A stretch of DNA of 63,317 nt, filler included. It is 5 parts of 5 records of this genome, joined end to end, with 100 filler letters (N's around TTAATTAATTAA, not from the genome) between each part and the next. Parts side by side here need not be neighbours in the genome. Positions count along the whole stretch, not along the records: positions 57,011 to 63,317 come from SRR20825006_1302; 4 more parts are not named here. One strand, 5' to 3'. Each line of letters starts with the position of its first letter. The first letter of the stretch is position 1. Below the pieces are notes generated by a model. The model saw only the letters and a list, made by a program, of their open reading frames with translations, made no database searches and was not told the DNA's origin. This document shows, one piece after another, positions 6,782 to 63,317 of this stretch. The translations under genes were made by a program, and so were the position numbers.

Positions 6782-7867
6782 TCAAGAGTTATCAGCAGAA
6801 TCCGTTGAGGAACCTAGAGTATGCGCAAACAACAAATCACGACAGTAGTCGTACTCCATTGAACTAGGTAGGTGTTCTGTGAATCCTTGTACAGACAACA
6901 TACCTTTGCAATGAAAGTCTTGATAAAAGGCGGTCCGATAACAAAGGTTTAGTTTGTCCGTCTGATTCGTGTCACACCACAAAAGCGGATTATCTGGCAG
7001 AGAAGATTTATAGCGTTTCACCCATTCGCTTACGGCAACAGGAATTTCAGAATTGGCATACTCGCTTGCATCGGCGCGCAGTTCATCGATTGACAAACGG
7101 TGCTTATGCTCAAGCTCCCAATGGTGCATCAACTCCGTCAAAAAAAAGTCCGATATCGGTGCAGGCTCAAGTGCATTGGCTGAGACAAAATCTTTCACAT
7201 GCTCGCATTCAATTTTTCCAAGTAAAACGAGCATTTGAGCGAACTCTGGTGTTAACCAAAAGTGCGCTGGATCAAGCGGTTCCGGTGCCGGTGGATTTTT
7301 AGTGGGGAACATCTTCGAGTAAAAACAAACAGTGTTCACGTGGTTAAGGAGTTGCCTTACTGCACTAAAGCGGGCTTCCCCGAACGGCTTTAGATTCTCG
7401 ACAAAGTTTCCTGCCCACTCCGTATCGTTAAAGAGGCCCCAATATGTAACATAAGTGCTTCCATAAAGGCTTCCCCGTTTCGCACTTTCAAACAGATATG
7501 AATACGTTCTTCGAACCTCATCGCCCGGGTTCATAGCCCCGTCAATAAATGCTTTACGTACGAAAAAGGCCTTGTAATAGCTATCAGCAGAACGCTCGGC
7601 ATCAGGTAGTGCCAGCTCAGCTAAAATTTCTTCTGGCTGCTCATGAAAGGTCCCCATCAAGGCACTCTGGAGATACGAGTGCCCCAACGACTCATCTATA
7701 CAATCGGCTGCCAACTCAGCAGCTTCATGTACTTGTGTATCAGGCATGAAGATTAACGAGGAGAGAACTGAGCAATCATTTGCGATAGATTTTTCGGCCC
7801 CCGCTACTGAGACAGCAGCAATCAGTGATAGAAAGACGGCGAAGCGGGAAATGAAAACCAATGCCAT
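6782..7867 (-). CDS. Hypothetical secreted Cys-containing protein
   Basis: 361-aa ORF with hydrophobic N-terminal signal; no recognised family; more AT-rich than its neighbours. Confidence 0.6.
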   Translation of the reverse strand: MALVFISRFAVFLSLIAAVSVAGAEKSIANDCSVLSSLIFMPDTQVHEAAELAADCIDESLGHSYLQSALMGTFHEQPEEILAELALPDAERSADSYYKAFFVRKAFIDGAMNPGDEVRRTYSYLFESAKRGSLYGSTYVTYWGLFNDTEWAGNFVENLKPFGEARFSAVRQLLNHVNTVCFYSKMFPTKNPPAPEPLDPAHFWLTPEFAQMLVLLGKIECEHVKDFVSANALEPAPISDFFLTELMHHWELEHKHRLSIDELRADASEYANSEIPVAVSEWVKRYKSSLPDNPLLWCDTNQTDKLNLCYRTAFYQDFHCKGMLSVQGFTEHLPSSMEYDYCRDLLFAHTLGSSTDSADNS

Positions 7868-8582: not shown

Positions 8583-8682
8583 NNNNNNNNNNNNNNNNNN
8601 NNNNNNNNNNNNNNNNNNNNNNNNNNTTAATTAATTAANNNNNNNNNNNNNNNNNNNNNNNNNNNNNNNNNNNNNNNNNNNN
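8583..8682. other. Artificial contig linker (N44-TTAATTAATTAA-N44)
   Basis: Identical 100-nt spacer occurs four times; composition and gene content change across it. Confidence 0.98.
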
Positions 8683-10776
8683 AAATTGTACCGTTTGTAA
8701 ACCTGAACCAACTCTTCCGTTTAAAAGTGTTGCCACTTCTTGGCCAAGCATATTGAATACTTTCAAACTTACATTACCCGCTTGCTGCAAGGTAAACTGG
8801 ATGTTTGTTGTTGGGTTAAATGGGTTTGGATAGTTTTGTGAAAGCTCAAAGCCTTCAGGCGCTTCCATCACTTCTGTACCAACACCTAACTGACCTGTAT
8901 TAAACTCAACTTGTGTAGTAACATATTTGTCACCTTTGAATGCTTTGTAGGTCATTGGTGAAGGAGTTGCTTCGTCCACAATCCAGAAAAAGTGGCGTGT
9001 TTCAGGATCAAAAGTAGCTGAAGCTGGCATGTTTGTTACTTCAACTTCTGGGATAGTTAGATCATAATTTCTTGCACTCACATATAAACTAACCGTATCG
9101 CCTAGCGTTGCCAAAACCGGTCCATCATTAAAAATACCTAGGTATTCGTTATACACATTAATTGTTCTATTTATCGACTCCTCTCCGTTAAAGAAACTAC
9201 GATACGAAGTTTGATTGTAGTTCTGCCCCTGATCGTTGGTACTTTTTGTTCCATAAGCTCTATATGACTTAAGAATTAGTTTTTTTAATGTAAAATCCCA
9301 TTCAAAGCGAACTTCGCGGGTACTCCCATCTATAAGAACCTCCCTTTTTACTCTGTATCCATAGGTAGTGTCTCCTACAGCACTAAAGTTGAAATATGCG
9401 TTACCAATATATACTCCTTCATCAGAATAATTTGATTCAGAAACACTAGCTTTATAAAGTTCTTTGGTTGAAAAATCCTGTACATAGCTTGTTTGTTTTA
9501 CTTGCGTAAAATATCCTGGGCTAATTTCTCTAAATTCACGAACTGTTTTGGATTGAAGAGACAAGCCACCAGTAATATTTGTGTAGTTTCTAACTTCAAT
9601 TTGATTACCGTTTGCATCATAGTCCATTTCTGTTCTAATATTTACACCATCAAGCTCTCCCATGTTCGTTTCGGCGTTATATTTAACTTTATATACAACT
9701 ACTGAATCTACTACTACTTTTTCATTTGCTAGTGTCCTATTGTAACTATTGTACGCTTCAGACATTACCCACTTCGAGTCTAGCCAATCATATCCAACTG
9801 CTTCTACTAACTGGTCATTGTTTGAATACTTAAAGTGTAAACTATCTTTACCTACAAGTTGCTTTAAGTTTGAGTCAAATTGCTTAACTACCTGATATAT
9901 ATATCTATTATTGGCTTCTTTTTTGGTATAGCTCCAATTCCAGGTTGTAATCTCCTCTTCGTAACCAAAATATTTTTGTTCACTTAAATCAAAGGTTGGG
10001 GTCTGCTCTTGTTTACTCTCTGTGTACTTCCGCCCTTGGGTATAATATTCAGTTGCGTATAAATAATAGTTTTCTTCTTGACGAGATCGTGTAACCGAGC
10101 TAATCTGGTATTCTTGTGTTTCGCCATTATACTCAAACCTTTTTGAGAGTGTATCCCTTCCACTTTCGTTTCTATACGAAAGACCTCGCTCGTTCTTTTT
10201 CCAACCCTCTCCTACATTGTATGATTCTCTAAAATATTCGTAATCGGCTCCATCCGTAGCTACCTTAGGATACAACCCTTTAGCACCATAATATGGTTCT
10301 GGTTGATTGTAGTTATAATAATAAGAAATTATACTATCGCCATAAGCCTCATCTCGGAATGACGTTTGCAATTGTTTTGGCCCCCAACTGGCGCTATCAG
10401 GAATCCATGTGTATGTATCGTAATGCGAAGTATATTTCTCATTAGTTCCGCTAGATGAAGACATTATATACTCACTTGGAGTAAACATCGTATCTTGATA
10501 GCCTTTATATTCTGAAAAAGAGAAAGAAGTATCTCCTGCTAAATCTTGGGCTTCAACATTATCTAGAACTCCTTTGGACTTAGCCACTTTTTCGTATTCT
10601 TTCCGCAGATTAATAAGCCACTCATCAGAAATTCTATTTTCTGGAGAAACTTGATACATAAAGGCTTTGTGTGAGGCATTTATGTATTGTGAGTTTATAA
10701 CTTCATTGATGTCTTGCTGTGCCTGAGCAGCCACACTACATAGCATGGCCACTATTAGTAACACTATCTTTTTCAT
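8683..10776 (-). CDS. Secreted protein with Ig-like domain and T9SS type A C-terminal sorting domain (3' truncated)
   Basis: Signal peptide (AQA); C-terminal FELSQNYPNPFNPTTNIQF...LKVFNMLGQEVATL; Tyr-rich beta-type body of unknown function. Confidence 0.85.
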
Positions 10777-27560: not shown

Positions 27561-27660
27561 NNNNNNNNNNNNNNNNNNNNNNNNNNNNNNNNNNNNNNNN
27601 NNNNTTAATTAATTAANNNNNNNNNNNNNNNNNNNNNNNNNNNNNNNNNNNNNNNNNNNN
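27561..27660. other. Artificial contig linker
   Basis: N44-TTAATTAATTAA-N44. Confidence 0.98.
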
Positions 27661-34337: not shown

Positions 34338-34437
34338 NNNNNNNNNNNNNNNNNNNNNNNNNNNNNNNNNNNNNNNNNNNNTTAATTAATTAANNNNNNN
34401 NNNNNNNNNNNNNNNNNNNNNNNNNNNNNNNNNNNNN
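34338..34437. other. Artificial contig linker
   Basis: N44-TTAATTAATTAA-N44. Confidence 0.98.
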
Positions 34438-56910: not shown

Positions 56911-57010
56911 NNNNNNNNNNNNNNNNNNNNNNNNNNNNNNNNNNNNNNNNNNNNTTAATTAATTAANNNNNNNNNNNNNNNNNNNNNNNNNNNNNNNNNN
57001 NNNNNNNNNN
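56911..57010. other. Artificial contig linker
   Basis: N44-TTAATTAATTAA-N44. Confidence 0.98.
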
Positions 57011-59143
57011 CCGGTTTTCATCTATAGCCGCAAAGACATCGACATGGCCGGCGTGGCCTCCGTGCCTCAGTTCATTCAGACCCTGCCGCAGAACTTCGGA
57101 GGCGGACTTTCAGAGAGCACGTCGGGCCTGAGCGCGGAAAACAATGCAGACCTCAATCTCAATTCTGGATCGGGCATCAACCTGCGCGGCCTCGGGAACG
57201 ATTCAACCTTGGTGTTGCTGAACGGACGCCGGCTTGCGCCCGCTGGCCTTGGCAATTTTGTCGATGTGTCGATGGTCCCGCTGTCGGCGATCAACCGGGT
57301 CGAGGTTCTGACCGACGGGGCCTCGGCACTCTATGGCTCCGACGCCGTGGGCGGGGTGGTGAATTTCATCTTGCGGGAAGATTATGACGGTGCGGAAACC
57401 CGCCTGCGCTACGGCACCGCGACATCGGGGGATCTGGACGATATTCAGTTGGGTCAGACGTTCGGCACCGTGTGGGATGACGGCCATGCGCTGATATCCT
57501 ACGAATTTCAGACACGCGATCCACTTGATGCCGCCGACCGCAGTTTCTCGCAAGACGCACGTCCGCTCCATCAATTGTTACCCAAACAGAAACGGCATAG
57601 CGCCTTTCTGACGGTCGGACAGAATCTCAGCGATACCGTCATGGTTTTTGCCGATGGTTTCTTCAGCGTGCGCGACAGCAGACAGATCCGCACGAGCAGT
57701 TTCTCGCCTGCCAATTTTGACATCAGTGAAACAGAGCAATATGGCGGCACTCTCGGATCGACAATTGACCTGTCCCACGACTGGCAGGCTGAGCTTGTCG
57801 CTTCGCTCAATCAAAGCCGGACCACGCAAGAAAATAAGCTGCTGGACGAAACCGAACTTGCGGCTCCTCGCATCCGGAAGTCCGGCACCTGGTCCATTGA
57901 CGGCAAGGCCGACGGTGCTCTCTTTCGCCTCTCTGGCGGCAATGTCAAATTGGCGGCTGGTGGCCACTTTCGCCGTGACACCTATACCAATAGCGACGAC
58001 CTGAAGTTTAATCGGGATGTTTTCGCAGCCTTTGGTGAAATTTTCGCACCGTTCGTCAGTGAGGAGAACAGAGCCCCTGGCATCGAACGACTGGAGCTGA
58101 CCATCGCCGCGCGCTATGAACATTACAGCGATTTCGGGTCGAGCGTTGACCCCAAGTTTGGGCTCTTGTGGTCGCCCATCGAAGGGCTCAGCCTTCGAGG
58201 TACATGGGGTACCGCCTTCAGGGCACCGCTGTTCAGGGAACTGGACGAAAGCAGCGTGCAGGGTTTCCTGTTTGGTGACGTTCCAAACCCGGCCTCTCCG
58301 AACGGCAGCACCCTTCTCGCGCTGGCCCTCGGCGGCAATGCCGACCTGAAACCGGAAACGGCCACCACTTGGACGGCCGGGATTGGCTTCCAGCCCGTTG
58401 GGGTGCCGGGCCTCAGCCTCGACGTCACCTATTTTGACATCACCTACAAGAACCGGATTTCGTCGGTCATTGCCCTTTTCGATGTGTTTATCAATCCCCG
58501 CTTTGCATCCCTGCTCGATTTCGATCCCGACCCGGCCTTTCTCGCGCTTTTGGGCTCGCTGCCGACGTCCGGGAATTTTGCGCCGGGGTTTTCCTTCACG
58601 GATGCAGAGGTGTTGGCGGACGAGCGGGAGAGCAATCAGGCGAGCACCAAGGTCAGTGGCCTCGATTTTTCGGGTTCCTATAGGATTGACAGCGACGTAG
58701 GAGCCTGGACCTTCACTGTTGGCGGCACGTACCTGTTCAAAAATCTGGAGCAACTGCTTGAGAGCGAAGAAGCCGCTGACGTTCTGAATACGGTTGGGCG
58801 ACCGGTCGACTTGAAGCTGCGGGGCGGCATCTCATGGGGATATCAGGATTTCTCGACAAATCTGGTGATCAACTATGTCGATAGCTATCGCGACACTCGT
58901 GCCACCCCCGTTGCGGGTGTGGGGTCCTGGACAACCGCGGACCTGATTGTCAGCTATAACACAGGCGACCACACCGACAGCGCCTGGCTCAGAAACACCG
59001 TTTTTTCCGTGAGCGCCCTGAACCTGTTCGACCAGGACCCGCCCTTTGTAACCAGCAACTTTGGCCACAATATCAACTATGACCCCAACAACGCCAGCCC
59101 GGTTGGCCGGACGGTCTCTTTCCAGATTACCAAACAATGGTGA
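57011..59143 (+). CDS. TonB-dependent receptor (5' truncated), lasso-cluster associated (AtxF-like)
   Basis: Frame open from the contig edge; plug NLRGLG...TLVLLNGRR, RVEVLTDGASALYGSDAVGGVVNFIL; GNADLKPE; NLFDQDPP; terminal Trp. Confidence 0.93.
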   Translation, partial: PVFIYSRKDIDMAGVASVPQFIQTLPQNFGGGLSESTSGLSAENNADLNLNSGSGINLRGLGNDSTLVLLNGRRLAPAGLGNFVDVSMVPLSAINRVEVLTDGASALYGSDAVGGVVNFILREDYDGAETRLRYGTATSGDLDDIQLGQTFGTVWDDGHALISYEFQTRDPLDAADRSFSQDARPLHQLLPKQKRHSAFLTVGQNLSDTVMVFADGFFSVRDSRQIRTSSFSPANFDISETEQYGGTLGSTIDLSHDWQAELVASLNQSRTTQENKLLDETELAAPRIRKSGTWSIDGKADGALFRLSGGNVKLAAGGHFRRDTYTNSDDLKFNRDVFAAFGEIFAPFVSEENRAPGIERLELTIAARYEHYSDFGSSVDPKFGLLWSPIEGLSLRGTWGTAFRAPLFRELDESSVQGFLFGDVPNPASPNGSTLLALALGGNADLKPETATTWTAGIGFQPVGVPGLSLDVTYFDITYKNRISSVIALFDVFINPRFASLLDFDPDPAFLALLGSLPTSGNFAPGFSFTDAEVLADERESNQASTKVSGLDFSGSYRIDSDVGAWTFTVGGTYLFKNLEQLLESEEAADVLNTVGRPVDLKLRGGISWGYQDFSTNLVINYVDSYRDTRATPVAGVGSWTTADLIVSYNTGDHTDSAWLRNTVFSVSALNLFDQDPPFVTSNFGHNINYDPNNASPVGRTVSFQITKQW

Positions 59144-59266
59144 CGGCCTGAACTGTTTCGGCCGAGGCAGGTCTGTTCTGATCGTTCGAGCAAGTCGAAC
59201 GATCAGGGCCGACAAATCTGGGAATTCCACAAATATAGCCGGGACACAGGCTTAAGGGTGTGAAGA

Positions 59267-61462
59267 ATGCTACTGACAACAAATATGCTCTCCAAATATG
59301 CGCTTCTGGCAACATCGATGATGTTAATATTCTGGCTATTGCCCGGCGCCTCTGCTGCATCCGACGCCAAACGGGGCATAACCGCGGATGACTTGTTGGC
59401 CATCCGTGACATCAAAACCGTCGCAATATCGCCGGACGGCAACCATGTGGCCTTTCAGGTTTTTCAGGCCATCAGAGACCGGAATGACTATGACATCGGT
59501 TGGTATGTGGCGCCGATCACCTCAAACGCAGAGCCCATGCGCGTGGCCGATGGCGGCGATGCGGTTCTGCCGCCCTATCAAAATGGCCTCCGCGTAGGGG
59601 AGTTCTATGGCGACGACGCCGTATGGTCGCCCGATAGCCGGTCGTTTGCCTATACGCTCAAGAAAAACGGCGAGGTGCAGATATGGCGCAGCCAGTTTGA
59701 CCGGAGCGGCCAAGAGCAGTTGACCCACAATGCCGGAAACGTCGAGGGCCCGAAATATTCCGAGGACGGCTCACAGCTATTTTTTGCCGTGGGCCGGGAC
59801 CGGTCCGATATCGAGCACGCCAACCAACGAGACGCAGCCCGAGGCTATCTGGTGCAGGAGCCGGGTGTTTTCGACATTGAACAGGGGCCGCTGTGGCCGT
59901 CCTGCTCTGATGGACAGACAAGGCAGCGTTCAGAGATAAATGAGCGTCGGTTCTGCCGGTTGACGGTCTGGGTGCTCGACATCCAGACGGGTGTTGAACG
60001 CAAGGCAGACGCTGGTGAAACCAAGGCCTATTTTGCCGCACCGGATATGTCGTCGCATGCCCGCTTCGAACGAGGGAAACTGAAAGACCAGGTCAGAATT
60101 ATGGAAACGGCGTCACCAGACGGGATGCGCTCGACCTGGTTTGAGAATGAAGATCCGGCCATCTACACCGGCTATTATCCGCCGATGCGGGTGGCGGCCT
60201 CGGTCGGCAAAAAAATCTTTCACTGCCCAGCCGATGCCTGCCTGAGCACACGCCCCGAAAAATTATGGTGGCGTGTCGATGGCGCGGAAGTGATCTTCCT
60301 CGTTCGCAACGGCCCGCGTGAAACCTTGACCTCTCTCTATGGCTGGACCCCGGGCGACAACCATGTGCGAACGATCCTGAGCAGTGACGATACGCTCCAG
60401 CACTGTTCCATGGCCGGAGACCGCTTGATCTGCGGTCATGAAAGCTGGACGTCGCCCCTGAAAATTGTATCGGTCGACCTGCATGACGGCGCCATCACTA
60501 CCATCGCCGACATGAACCCGGAATTCAGGAATTTCAGCTTCACGAAGGTCGAAAAAATCCTCGGCGAGGACGCTTACGGCAACCCGGCTCATGCCCATCT
60601 GGTGTATCCCAAGGGCTATGGAGAAGGTCGGCGCTATCCGCTCATGATCGTCCAGTACCGGTCGCGCGGCTTTCTGAGGGGCGGGGTTGGCGACGAGGTG
60701 CCCATTCATTGGCTGGCACAGAATGGATTTGCGGTGCTCAGTTTCGATACACCCGAAGGAGACTATTACACAAGAACGCCCGATCCGCTGGAGATGCAGA
60801 TAAAATACCTGAAATATGTCGTAATCGAGCGTGGGCCGGCGACGGCGATTGAGCGCATGGTCGACAAGCTGGTAAGCCACGGTATTGTCGACCCGGCACG
60901 TGTGGCGATCACCGGATTAAGCCATGGCGCCTCCACGCTTGACAGTGCGCTCCTGGGCCGGAATTACGCGGCAGCCATAACGGCGGGTACGAGTATCAGC
61001 GCTCCCCCGAACACCAAAGTATCCGCATCCTCTTTCTGGGGCAAGAGCATGGACGGCGCTTTTGGCGGCTCCCCCTTCAGCAAGACGGGGTTCGAGACCA
61101 GGGCCAAATATTCGGTGGGGGTTCAGGCTTTCAGGATTGACACACCTGTCCTTTTTCAGGTTGCCGACCGAGAGTATTATAATGTCCTGCAGAATTATCA
61201 GGCCCTCCGGGACGCAGGCAAACCGGTCGAGATGTTTATTTATCCCGACGAATATCATGTCAAATGGCAACCGGCCCACAGATCTCGGGTTTATATACGT
61301 AACATAGATTGGCTGAATTTCTGGCTTCGGGACACTGAAGACGAGGATCCCGCCAAAGCCGCACAATATGAACGCTGGCGCAGCCTGAAGGCACAGCATC
61401 AAGCCAATCTGTTGAAATTGCGTGAGGGTGGTGGTGTCAAGGATGACAAACATTGGCCATGA
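59267..61462 (+). CDS. AtxE2-family lasso peptide isopeptidase (S9 prolyl-oligopeptidase fold), secreted
   Basis: Signal peptide, propeller WSPD repeats, QYRSRGFLRGGVGDE, GLSHG nucleophile, ADREY, DEYHVKWQPAHR...NIDWLNFWL, AAQYERW. Confidence 0.88.
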   Translation: MLLTTNMLSKYALLATSMMLIFWLLPGASAASDAKRGITADDLLAIRDIKTVAISPDGNHVAFQVFQAIRDRNDYDIGWYVAPITSNAEPMRVADGGDAVLPPYQNGLRVGEFYGDDAVWSPDSRSFAYTLKKNGEVQIWRSQFDRSGQEQLTHNAGNVEGPKYSEDGSQLFFAVGRDRSDIEHANQRDAARGYLVQEPGVFDIEQGPLWPSCSDGQTRQRSEINERRFCRLTVWVLDIQTGVERKADAGETKAYFAAPDMSSHARFERGKLKDQVRIMETASPDGMRSTWFENEDPAIYTGYYPPMRVAASVGKKIFHCPADACLSTRPEKLWWRVDGAEVIFLVRNGPRETLTSLYGWTPGDNHVRTILSSDDTLQHCSMAGDRLICGHESWTSPLKIVSVDLHDGAITTIADMNPEFRNFSFTKVEKILGEDAYGNPAHAHLVYPKGYGEGRRYPLMIVQYRSRGFLRGGVGDEVPIHWLAQNGFAVLSFDTPEGDYYTRTPDPLEMQIKYLKYVVIERGPATAIERMVDKLVSHGIVDPARVAITGLSHGASTLDSALLGRNYAAAITAGTSISAPPNTKVSASSFWGKSMDGAFGGSPFSKTGFETRAKYSVGVQAFRIDTPVLFQVADREYYNVLQNYQALRDAGKPVEMFIYPDEYHVKWQPAHRSRVYIRNIDWLNFWLRDTEDEDPAKAAQYERWRSLKAQHQANLLKLREGGGVKDDKHWP

Positions 61463-61669
61463 GACGGAAAACTGAAGGAAAATGATTGGGCCTCCCACGT
61501 CTGGCCGAGGTTACAGTTAAGCGCACCTCGAACAGCGGGGTTTCACATGTGCAGGATTTTTCCGCTCCAGATGCAAAAGGAGGTGCTTGACACGTTAAGC
61601 GCCAGACACCTCCCAAGGCTTTGCTGCAAACCACATTGGCATCTGGCCTATGCGGTTACCGCTTGACCG

Positions 61670-61753
61670 TCAGATCCGGGGCAGCCCGTTATCTTCCTTC
61701 GGGCTGCCTTCCTTGCCGGTCACTTCCGATACCTGTCCAAGTGCAATCATCAT
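61670..61753 (-). CDS. Putative lasso peptide precursor (27 aa; MMIALGQVSEVTG-KEGSPKEDNGLPRI); absent from ORF track
   Basis: AGGAG RBS at 61761-61757; leader motif I-x-LG-x-VS-x-x-T-x; acidic residues at core positions 7/8; co-oriented with and downstream of the lasso cyclase. Confidence 0.72.
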   Translation of the reverse strand: MMIALGQVSEVTGKEGSPKEDNGLPRI

Positions 61754-61971
61754 AGTCTCCTATCGATTTGCGGTTATGTCGGCTCATTCCGACCCGAGAA
61801 CGGTAGGACCAATCCAGACGCTCAGGTAACTATATAAAAACAATATAAAATCCGGCACTCCAGATGCATTCGAACCTGAACACCGTCACCAGACGATGCA
61901 GCCGCCCAAAGACTGTTTCTCTCGTCGGCTTTGAGGGTCCGAGCCGATCGACATCGTTGGAGAAGCGGCGG

Positions 61972-63317
61972 TCAGGCGACCGCACCGCGCGCAATATCGG
62001 GAAACGCTTTGCCGCGCCATTTGCGCGCCCAGATTTCTGCGTTGATATAATACATCAACCAATCGCCATCCTGGTTGCCGATGTTGTGATCCCGCGCCAG
62101 GGTCTTTTTCAGATTGGTTTTATTGACGACCTTGTCGCTGACGAGCACGCCGTCCAGCAGACATTCCCGGATGAAGCCGATATTTTCGTCGATGAAAGCT
62201 TTCTGGTAGGCCCCGGACGAGAGTTTCGAGGTGCGCCAGACGACATCTGCTGGCAGGTGATGCCGGAATGCCTTGCGCGCCAGCCCTCTGGATTTACCAT
62301 TGGCCGTCATCACCCAACTTGGGATACGAAGGCATGTCTCGATCACAGGCTGCGCCAGCAGGGGATAGATCATGGGCACATGCTCGCCCGGCCATGTGTT
62401 GTATTCCTCGTTATAAAATCCCCTCGTGTAGTGAAAGATATGGTCAAGCTTGCCGGGCACCATGCCCTTGCCCTGTTTGATCCATGGATGGACGGAGCCG
62501 TCCGGCTTGATCAGGTCCTGAATATCGTCATTCAGGAGCGTGGTCGTCCCCGGGTCGAATTCCGTGTAAAAGTCCCATTGTTTGCGTCCCAAGCCGTCCC
62601 GGAAGATTTTCGGCAAGATGGACCAGACAGAGAGATTCTGAAGCCTGGCAGCCTCCATGATCAGCCGAAGCAAAGGCCGGCGCAGACCGTGTGTTTTCAG
62701 GTAATCGATCGCGCCGTAGCTTGACTCTCGCGCATAGAGAATTTCATCTCCGCCCCAACCGTTAAACCGCGCCTGAAGACCGTTTTCCCGCGCCAGTTCT
62801 GGTATGTTACTCTCGAACTCAATCTGGCGGCCATAATAGATCGGTTTTGTCGTGAGCGGCAGCCGCTGCAGGGCATCCGCGTCCAACTTCACAATTTTCT
62901 TGTCATGTTCGATGAGCGGAACGCTGAGCTTTTCCGTCACTTGCCGCACATAATGACGCTCGTCCCCCATGGGGTTTGTTCGGTCGAAATTGGTGATACA
63001 GGTGATGTCGAGCGAAGCGCGCGCTTCCTTGAGGCAGGCAAGCAGGATCGACGAATCCAGCCCGCCGATCTCATGCAATATCCGGTCATAGGGCGCGGCG
63101 TGCGCGGCAACGGTGGTCATCAACACCTTGTGCAAGGTCGCCTCGGCTTCCGCGACGTCCTCGATCACATTGGTCTGGGATATTTTTTGCGGATCCCAGT
63201 AAAAGACGTTTTCCGTCGCCCAAGGGGTGATCGTGAGACATTGGCCGGAGAGAAGCTTGTCAACTTCTTTGAGCCCCGTTCGGGCCCCGCCCGTGGCATA
63301 CCTCAAATATCTGGCAA
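61972..63317 (-). CDS. Lasso peptide cyclase (asparagine synthetase-like, C protein), 5' truncated
   Basis: GGLDSS, DERHY, GWGGDE, PLLAQPVIETCLRIPSW, SRGLARKAF...LP...WRTSK motifs; convergent with isopeptidase and TBDT as in astexin-type clusters. Confidence 0.87.
   Translation of the reverse strand, partial: ARYLRYATGGARTGLKEVDKLLSGQCLTITPWATENVFYWDPQKISQTNVIEDVAEAEATLHKVLMTTVAAHAAPYDRILHEIGGLDSSILLACLKEARASLDITCITNFDRTNPMGDERHYVRQVTEKLSVPLIEHDKKIVKLDADALQRLPLTTKPIYYGRQIEFESNIPELARENGLQARFNGWGGDEILYARESSYGAIDYLKTHGLRRPLLRLIMEAARLQNLSVWSILPKIFRDGLGRKQWDFYTEFDPGTTTLLNDDIQDLIKPDGSVHPWIKQGKGMVPGKLDHIFHYTRGFYNEEYNTWPGEHVPMIYPLLAQPVIETCLRIPSWVMTANGKSRGLARKAFRHHLPADVVWRTSKLSSGAYQKAFIDENIGFIRECLLDGVLVSDKVVNKTNLKKTLARDHNIGNQDGDWLMYYINAEIWARKWRGKAFPDIARGAVA

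Follow-up and report, generated by a model that had tools for sequence, protein, structure and literature searches.

The window, i.e. the whole stretch of DNA analysed here (63,317 nucleotides, filler included), is a chain of separate contigs, with N runs flanking an all-frame stop linker at each join (positions 8583-8682, 27561-27660, 34338-34437 and 56911-57010). Genes on the two sides of a join, e.g., the sugar genes before 56911 and the lasso genes after 57010, therefore need not be neighbours in the genome. The lasso piece (57011-63317) starts with the gene for a TonB-dependent receptor (57011..59143, plus strand; Pfam Plug and TonB_dep_Rec), the 5' end of which is lost at the contig join; a biological truncation of this gene was considered and rejected, as the cut falls at the assembly join/contig end. 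The next gene (59267..61462, plus strand) encodes an AtxE2-family lasso peptide isopeptidase (E) of the Peptidase_S9 type. It matches the NCBIfam equivalog NF033523 ("Atxe2 family lasso peptide isopeptidase") with 599.7 bits (cut-off 400) over model positions 1-638 of 638, and the AtxE2 structure PDB 5txc with an E-value of 4.2e-85, the nucleophile stretch Gly-Leu-Ser-x-Gly-Ala being aligned. Convergent to it is the lasso cyclase gene (C; 61972..63317, minus strand; Pfam Asn_synthase, E 1.2e-17), which is cut by the end of the window and represented only by its 3' part.

The same locus is present on the public chromosome of a Kordiimonas sp. MAG (designated L001), with 24 differences over 6,307 shared bases, all within the receptor gene and 21 of them synonymous; the genome with the identical locus is 4.2 Mb in size. 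L001 supplies the genes beyond the window end, namely the full C (618 aa), B, D and genes for a GntR regulator, a LuxI-type synthase and a LuxR-type regulator. D, a 613-aa ABC_membrane plus ABC_tran protein, is encoded directly before B, and B, which has a transglutaminase-like domain, directly before C. The B protein reaches 61.9 bits against NCBIfam's lasso B2 model (cut-off 33). C stays under the NCBIfam lasso-cyclase cut-offs, and some of its homologues bear the name lasso cyclase. The reading frames of D, B, C and E are all intact. With the precursor gene (A) described below, the gene order is GntR-D-B-C-A, with E and the TonB receptor convergent; GntR and the receptor are conserved in related loci. 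Furthermore, LuxR and LuxI (acyl-homoserine-lactone synthase) genes adjoin the lasso locus at L001:1-1648, beyond the window end, with an 85-aa ORF without Pfam match between them (L001:754-1011, plus strand). Such a LuxR/LuxI pair is found beside the loci L001, L113, L118 and L124, and LuxR alone beside L114, L119 and L121, which suggests quorum-sensing control.

About 220 nt 3' of C, a minus-strand ORF of 27 codons is located at 61670..61753 (stop codon TGA at 61672-61670). The initial annotation had proposed a hidden, short lasso precursor gene of the form AGGAG-ACT-ATG-ATG here, between cyclase and isopeptidase, and both the sequence and the ORF listing bear this out, with the Asn_synthase-type gene upstream and the convergent AtxE2-family isopeptidase gene downstream. 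The Shine-Dalgarno sequence AGGAG (61757..61761, minus strand) is followed, after 3 bases, by two consecutive ATG codons; it lies 6 bases 5' of the second one (61750), from which the precursor has 26 codons (26 aa). An in-frame TAG just 5' of AGGAG means that neither the frame nor the leader can extend further upstream. In the closest relative (L113), the DNA 5' of the first precursor gene is nearly identical to that of the window, but ATA replaces the first ATG; hence the homologous start is the second ATG and the leader has 12 residues. The leader length of 12-13 residues given previously thus narrows to 12. The leader corresponds to 61715..61750 (12 codons, last residues Thr-Gly; no gaps are needed to align it with the relatives' leaders of 12 residues), and the predicted core to 61673..61714 (14 codons, minus strand as all features of A; Lys1, Glu7, Asp8 and Arg13), in the register with Thr at position -2 that the relatives share. 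The remaining motif matches in the 13-kb L001 locus, where we looked for other precursors, fall within larger genes or overlap them, and none has the family leader.

The relatives of this gene were approached through the cyclase. Its homologues with E-values of 1e-20 or better number 93, the nearest ones coming from Kordiimonadaceae, Emcibacter and Paremcibacter records; the closest cyclase relative (P0002) is 83% identical. DNA around relatives came from three sources: metagenomes provided 78 loci, 4 of the 45 genomes in the same family as the L001 genome had a match (that genome itself counted), and so did 48 of 401 in a sample of its order. A cyclase search among 401 genomes of the order around G001 gave no matches, and a control search of the L001 genome recovered the gene. 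An unbiased list of small ORFs from the first 450 nt 3' of C in the closest loci contained ORFs with the same short leader as in the window. A motif scan of 17 loci combined with manual picking yielded 35 ORFs, of which 34 are distinct; 16 of the loci contributed, and the 17th ends 210 nt after C. The search for homologous short ORFs near related cyclases that had been recommended as a check was thus positive. The leader has exactly 12 residues in 25 of the 34 family ORFs, with the consensus MIxLGKVSxxTK. Note that the scan motif demanded Gly and Thr and left the conserved Met, Leu, Ser and Lys free; the invariance of Gly and Thr is therefore partly circular. An SD-like site precedes 31 of the 34 ORFs.

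The position of the gene is conserved as well. Among the family ORFs, 24 are located after C and 10 before B, and of the eight loci whose C is at least 47% identical to that of the window, seven carry an ORF 63-225 nt downstream of C, the eighth being truncated by the end of its contig. The closest loci (L113, L114 and L004) have the same GntR-D-B-C-A arrangement, again with E and the receptor in convergent orientation. The position downstream of the cyclase, which had been called non-standard, is indeed so in comparison with the usual A-C-B order, and is shared by the relatives. D has a homologue in 10 of the 17 compared loci, and four of these ten (L001, L004, L113 and L124) also possess a full-length isopeptidase match. 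Two loci, L004 (1664-2356) and L117 (12500-13195), carry two B-C pairs each; in both, the upstream B lacks the catalytic Cys (Gly/Ser instead), and the downstream B keeps it. Up to six tandem precursor genes follow one cyclase in L117 (4057-7883, minus strand) and L007 (2433-3523), four of which are nearly the same and deviate from one another at single positions of the core.

Taken together, the window ORF appears to belong to a clade of marine alphaproteobacterial loci (relatives of Kordiimonas and Emcibacter) with a naturally minimal leader of 12 residues, which keeps only the Leu-Gly ... Ser ... Thr-x segment that ends the longer proteobacterial leaders. In the public protein collection, a profile of family members (with a 45-residue member first) retrieved 11 peptides, nearly all of them already found and none with Lys1; one was named (hypothetical protein), and none was named as a lasso precursor. 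The precursors are below the length limits of most gene callers and the public ones bear no lasso name, so they may be missed in annotation. Our search for lasso literature on Kordiimonas, Emcibacter, Paremcibacter and short, minimal or truncated leaders, with most subscription journals outside its coverage, gave no description of the clade. This clade represents a variant of the proteobacterial lasso loci that has not been described before, and it combines a minimal leader, A after C, a free residue 1, and D and E together. Within it, the peptide of the window is the oddest member.

The ORF, its conservation and its synteny are direct observations, as are the identities of the neighbouring genes. 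Further evidence for coding comes from a leader profile of 12 positions, for which only the other 33 ORFs were used and the window row was left out. In a search of all 2,243 stop-to-stop frames of at least 15 aa in the whole window, this profile ranked the window frame first (E 7.4e-4, 16.4 bits), the next-best frame having an E-value of 0.68. A family profile that included the window's own row matched one place in the 4.2-Mb genome with the identical locus and two places in G439, both beside its C; in G001, the nearest genome, which has no such locus, it found no match. Across the family, all four third bases occur in the codons for each of the conserved residues Gly, Ser and Thr. In the contig of run X12, two differences fall inside the ORF, both synonymous. 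A 21-kb contig of run X18 is about 5% divergent (38 differences per 699 nt), and no listed difference falls within 61661-61859 (ORF and upstream region) against ~10.8 expected; as 37 of the 38 differences are listed, at most one can lie there. Changes are dense in the adjoining upstream spacer (61860-61970), the most variable part in X18. In the X12 contig, the cyclase-precursor spacer (window 61793-61990) is replaced by 197 unrelated letters. The spacer between cyclase and precursor is a hotspot of change, and the precursor with its immediate upstream region is kept. One further run (X19), presumed to be RNA, covers only 61823-62047, which lies outside the ORF.

The precursor gene is flanked by several candidate signals on the minus strand. 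A hairpin with a 5-bp stem and a 6-base loop (61778..61793) is conserved in the 5'-UTR of family precursor genes: in 25 of these genes, 83% of the cells are paired as compared to 23-44% when the structure is slid, with compensatory, double-sided changes in all six pairs, the structure having been derived from the same sequences as the counts. Further upstream, an AT-rich, palindrome-like block of the type TATAw-N5-TTATA (61828..61852) forms invariant columns in a five-locus alignment (A5), in loci with just 38-62% cyclase identity, and is a possible operator or promoter. Downstream of the ORF, a strong hairpin followed by a U run (61578..61614; -45 kcal/mol for the 103-nt stretch, z -4.58, none of 200 shuffles as stable) is likely a terminator after the precursor. 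Between 61400 and 62100, a scan with the sigma-70 consensus revealed no promoter-like site, and Rfam gave no match at E-values up to 1. The terminator hairpin, the 5'-UTR hairpin and the AT-rich block together suggest that the precursor transcript may be separately controlled or separately stabilised.

Where the leader ends determines what the core is. In the MAFFT alignment, no gap separates the leader of the window from those of the relatives with 12 residues; in the ungapped leader block of alignment A2 its Thr shares a column with that of 18 relatives, which places the window Gly in the -1 column. The Thr is thus present by alignment as the penultimate leader residue, and is a true -2 residue only if the predicted cut holds. 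A role of Thr(-2) in leader cleavage is established for the lasso class. If the cut is set two residues after Thr, Asp or Glu occurs at core positions 7-9 in 29 of the 34 family cores, and for the multi-copy peptide of L117 and L007 (Ile1, Asp9) a ring of 7-9 residues is possible only in this register. In the precursors L008:6997-7119, 7374-7487 and 10025-10138, in L117:4060-4164 and in those of L034, L078 and L022, the only suitable Asp is at core position 10 under Thr(-2), which implies 10-membered rings or a different cut site; we know of no described lasso ring of 10 members.

In the same register, residue 1 of the 34 family ORFs is Gly in 16, Ile in eight and Val in four cases, and Ala, Leu, Trp, Phe, Ser and Lys once each; a lasso peptide with Trp1 exists (fusilassin/fuscanodin). 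The -1 residue is Lys in 27 leaders, Arg in three, Met in two and His in one, with Gly only in the window. A wider profile search of 109 loci (41 rows, six of them mis-registered second matches) revealed no second Lys1 peptide. The window core in the Thr(-2) register contains Glu7 and Asp8, and its 14 residues make it the shortest of the family except for one 11-residue, probably decayed copy. The acceptor of the nearest relatives is at position 8; Asp8 of the window would keep their 8-membered ring, and MAFFT pairs Glu7 of the window with their Glu8. The register proposed at the outset, with Thr(-2), a 14-residue core starting with Lys1 and Glu7 or Asp8 as acceptor, is thus favoured by the leaders of the relatives, by their gene placement and by their non-Gly first residues, and we consider Lys as ring residue 1 of a 14-residue core moderately probable. 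In this favoured register residue 1 falls outside the Gly/Ala/Ser/Cys rule, and Asp and Glu are found among core positions 7-9, as they also are in the register starting with Gly. A second suggestion, that the epsilon-amine of Lys offers an alternative cyclisation, found no support, and no extra enzyme for such chemistry was seen in the locus.

The register that starts with Gly had been named as the alternative. Cleavage directly after Thr would give a 15-residue core with a conventional residue 1, Thr at -1 and a Gly1-Glu8 (or Gly1-Asp9) ring. Compared to its closest relative (L113:10062-10145), the window peptide is one residue short between Thr and a shared Lys, and it is this shortening at the leader/core junction that keeps Gly1-Glu8 a live rival: a core begun at Gly matches the 15-residue core of L113 without gaps, with six identical positions including the Glu at position 8 and the Arg near the end. 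Moreover, Gly is the commonest residue 1 of the family, and the window is alone in having Gly before the predicted cut. On the other hand, all 33 other leaders have one residue between Thr and a core with a plausible acceptor, the gap-free alignment assigns Gly to the leader, and a shifted Thr would depart from the role of Thr(-2) in cleavage across the class. A lasso clade lacking Thr(-2) has been reported (PMC12070363, in the portion available), in line with a cut at Gly. On balance, we regard the Gly1 core as rather unlikely and prefer the Lys1 core. The cut may also follow the Lys that occupies position -1 in most family leaders, i.e. after Thr-Gly-Lys, leaving a 13-residue core with Glu1 and a ring on Asp7. 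This would put Thr at -3 and create a 7-membered ring as opposed to the position-8 acceptors of the nearest relatives, and a change of ring size by one residue is reported to lower production strongly (PMC13352647, as far as the available part of this review goes), so that we consider this cut very improbable.

The two remaining rivals question the gene rather than the register. The precursor may be decaying or unprocessed, with a deletion at the junction, B and C no longer maturing the peptide, and the locus silent or being lost. The atypical residues at -1 and +1, the shortest core and the residue missing in comparison with the closest relative would all fit decay; furthermore, the locus L122 carries an 11-residue copy without a usable acceptor, and the locus is absent from G001, the nearest genome. 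However, the gene is the sole precursor in its genome, the frames of D, B, C and E are intact, both variants within the ORF are synonymous, the 5%-divergent strain has no listed changes in the ORF and its upstream region, and an acidic residue stands where an 8-membered ring needs it, which makes decay improbable. That the ORF is a chance, non-coding frame in an intergenic spacer could be argued from its size, as it has just 27 codons and similar sizes are common (148 ORFs of at least 20 aa in 9.3 kb). Against this stand the match to the leader profile, the syntenic homologues in 16 of the 17 loci, the codon-level conservation, the SD site and the synonymous-only variants; the ORF appears not to be a chance one, and we rate this explanation as extremely improbable. 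The 27-codon ORF is very probably a genuine lasso peptide precursor gene, with a product that is a prediction.

The enzymes of the locus allow a pathway to be proposed. B keeps the Cys and His motifs of its protease domain. In an AlphaFold model (pLDDT 85.2, 18-row alignment), its N-terminus consists of strands 13-18, 21-26 and 31-34 and helices 37-47 and 61-70, and the best Foldseek matches of this part are the leader-bound lasso B1 proteins 6jx3_B and 5v1v_A (TM 0.60-0.61 on the target, probability 0.99-1.0), with E-values that are weak for this RRE match (0.05-0.2). At E-values up to 10, Pfam gave no PqqD match for the N-terminal third of B or for the corresponding part of two relatives. 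The 12-residue leader would bind as a strand to the putative RRE-like sheet in the N-terminal domain of the fused B, and B would cut two residues after Thr, i.e. after Thr-Gly, freeing Lys1. C would then adenylate Asp8 (less likely Glu7) and couple it to the Lys1 alpha-amine, so that the ring forms around a tail folded beforehand; Arg13 is the likely plug. The expected product is a 14-residue, strongly charged lasso, which D would export; the TonB receptor may take it back up, and the isopeptidase would linearise it. This re-uptake and opening step follows the siderophore-like idea (PMC9266682 and PMC11006600, in the sections available). We infer the cleavage site, the ring residue, the threading and the physiological cycle from the comparisons above. 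The reading as a whole, i.e. a single A gene encoding a Lys1-Asp8 lasso in a clade with 12-residue leaders, export by D and recycling through receptor and isopeptidase, seems to us somewhat more probable than otherwise.

A conserved clade with natural leaders of 12 residues would reveal what the minimal recognition element really is, and would provide B/C pairs whose whole substrate (26-45 residues) suits chemical synthesis. Ring position 1 is usually the most restrictive site in lasso engineering, and the clade appears to be tolerant there (Ile, Val, Leu, Ala, Phe, Trp, Gly, Lys). That genes for an exporter, a receptor and an isopeptidase share one locus, often next to LuxR/LuxI, is relevant to the role of isopeptidase-linked lasso peptides. 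As a tentative and rather doubtful extension, a leader of 12 residues might suffice together with almost any residue 1, including Lys, and the Lys1-Asp8 lasso might be exported by its own ABC pump, re-imported via the TonB receptor and opened by the isopeptidase, with LuxR/LuxI possibly tying this cycle to quorum sensing; the peptide would then be a recyclable signal or scavenger rather than an antibiotic.

Among known systems, the locus is most readily compared with the astexin-type AtxE2 clusters of Alphaproteobacteria. As described in the accessible parts of PMC9266682 and PMC11006600, these clusters likewise comprise a fused B with a transglutaminase-like protease, an Asn-synthase-like C, a GntR regulator and an AtxE2-family isopeptidase in convergent or divergent orientation together with a TonB-dependent receptor; the astexin-type leaders also end in Leu-Gly ... 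Ser ... Thr-x. The differences concern the gene order (D-B-C-A rather than A-C-B), residue 1, which is rarely Gly in the nearest relatives of the window, and the leader length of 12 (or 13) residues instead of ~20-40; a 2026 review gives, in the part available, 20-40 residues for lasso leaders and 13-33 for cores (PMC13352647). Furthermore, an ABC exporter is present here, and no sigma/anti-sigma pair was seen within the 13-kb L001 locus. In a two-clade model, isopeptidase lasso clusters are described as lacking an ABC exporter, rubrinodin being the one exception in the available text of PMC9266682, whereas D and E co-occur in the four loci named above. The rubrinodin cluster thus resembles the present one in combining isopeptidase, ABC transporter and TonB-dependent receptor, and differs in its FecI/FecR-like regulators, in place of which GntR and LuxR/LuxI are found here (a comparison by the description of gene content only, from the same excerpt).

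Metanodin (2025), with Asn1, is presented in the accessible part of PMC12670498 as the first observed case of a residue 1 outside Gly/Cys/Ser/Ala, assigned, as in this study, via Thr(-2). In contrast to metanodin and similar cases, residue 1 varies widely here within one enzyme clade; no Lys1 lasso peptide was met in our non-exhaustive search of the literature. A departure from the long-leader rule is also known for the leaderless, triculamin-type lasso peptides, which, according to the available portion of PMC12070363, have no leader and no B, a follower peptide and a truncated cyclase, unlike the present locus with its B with a putative RRE-like domain, its full-length C and its minimal leader. 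Finally, in microcin J25 a short C-terminal piece of the leader can suffice for processing (PMC11212047, citing Cheung, Pan and Link 2010, in the part accessible). Those truncations were engineered and inefficient, whereas the 12-residue leader of the loci described here appears to be the natural and conserved state of a whole clade.
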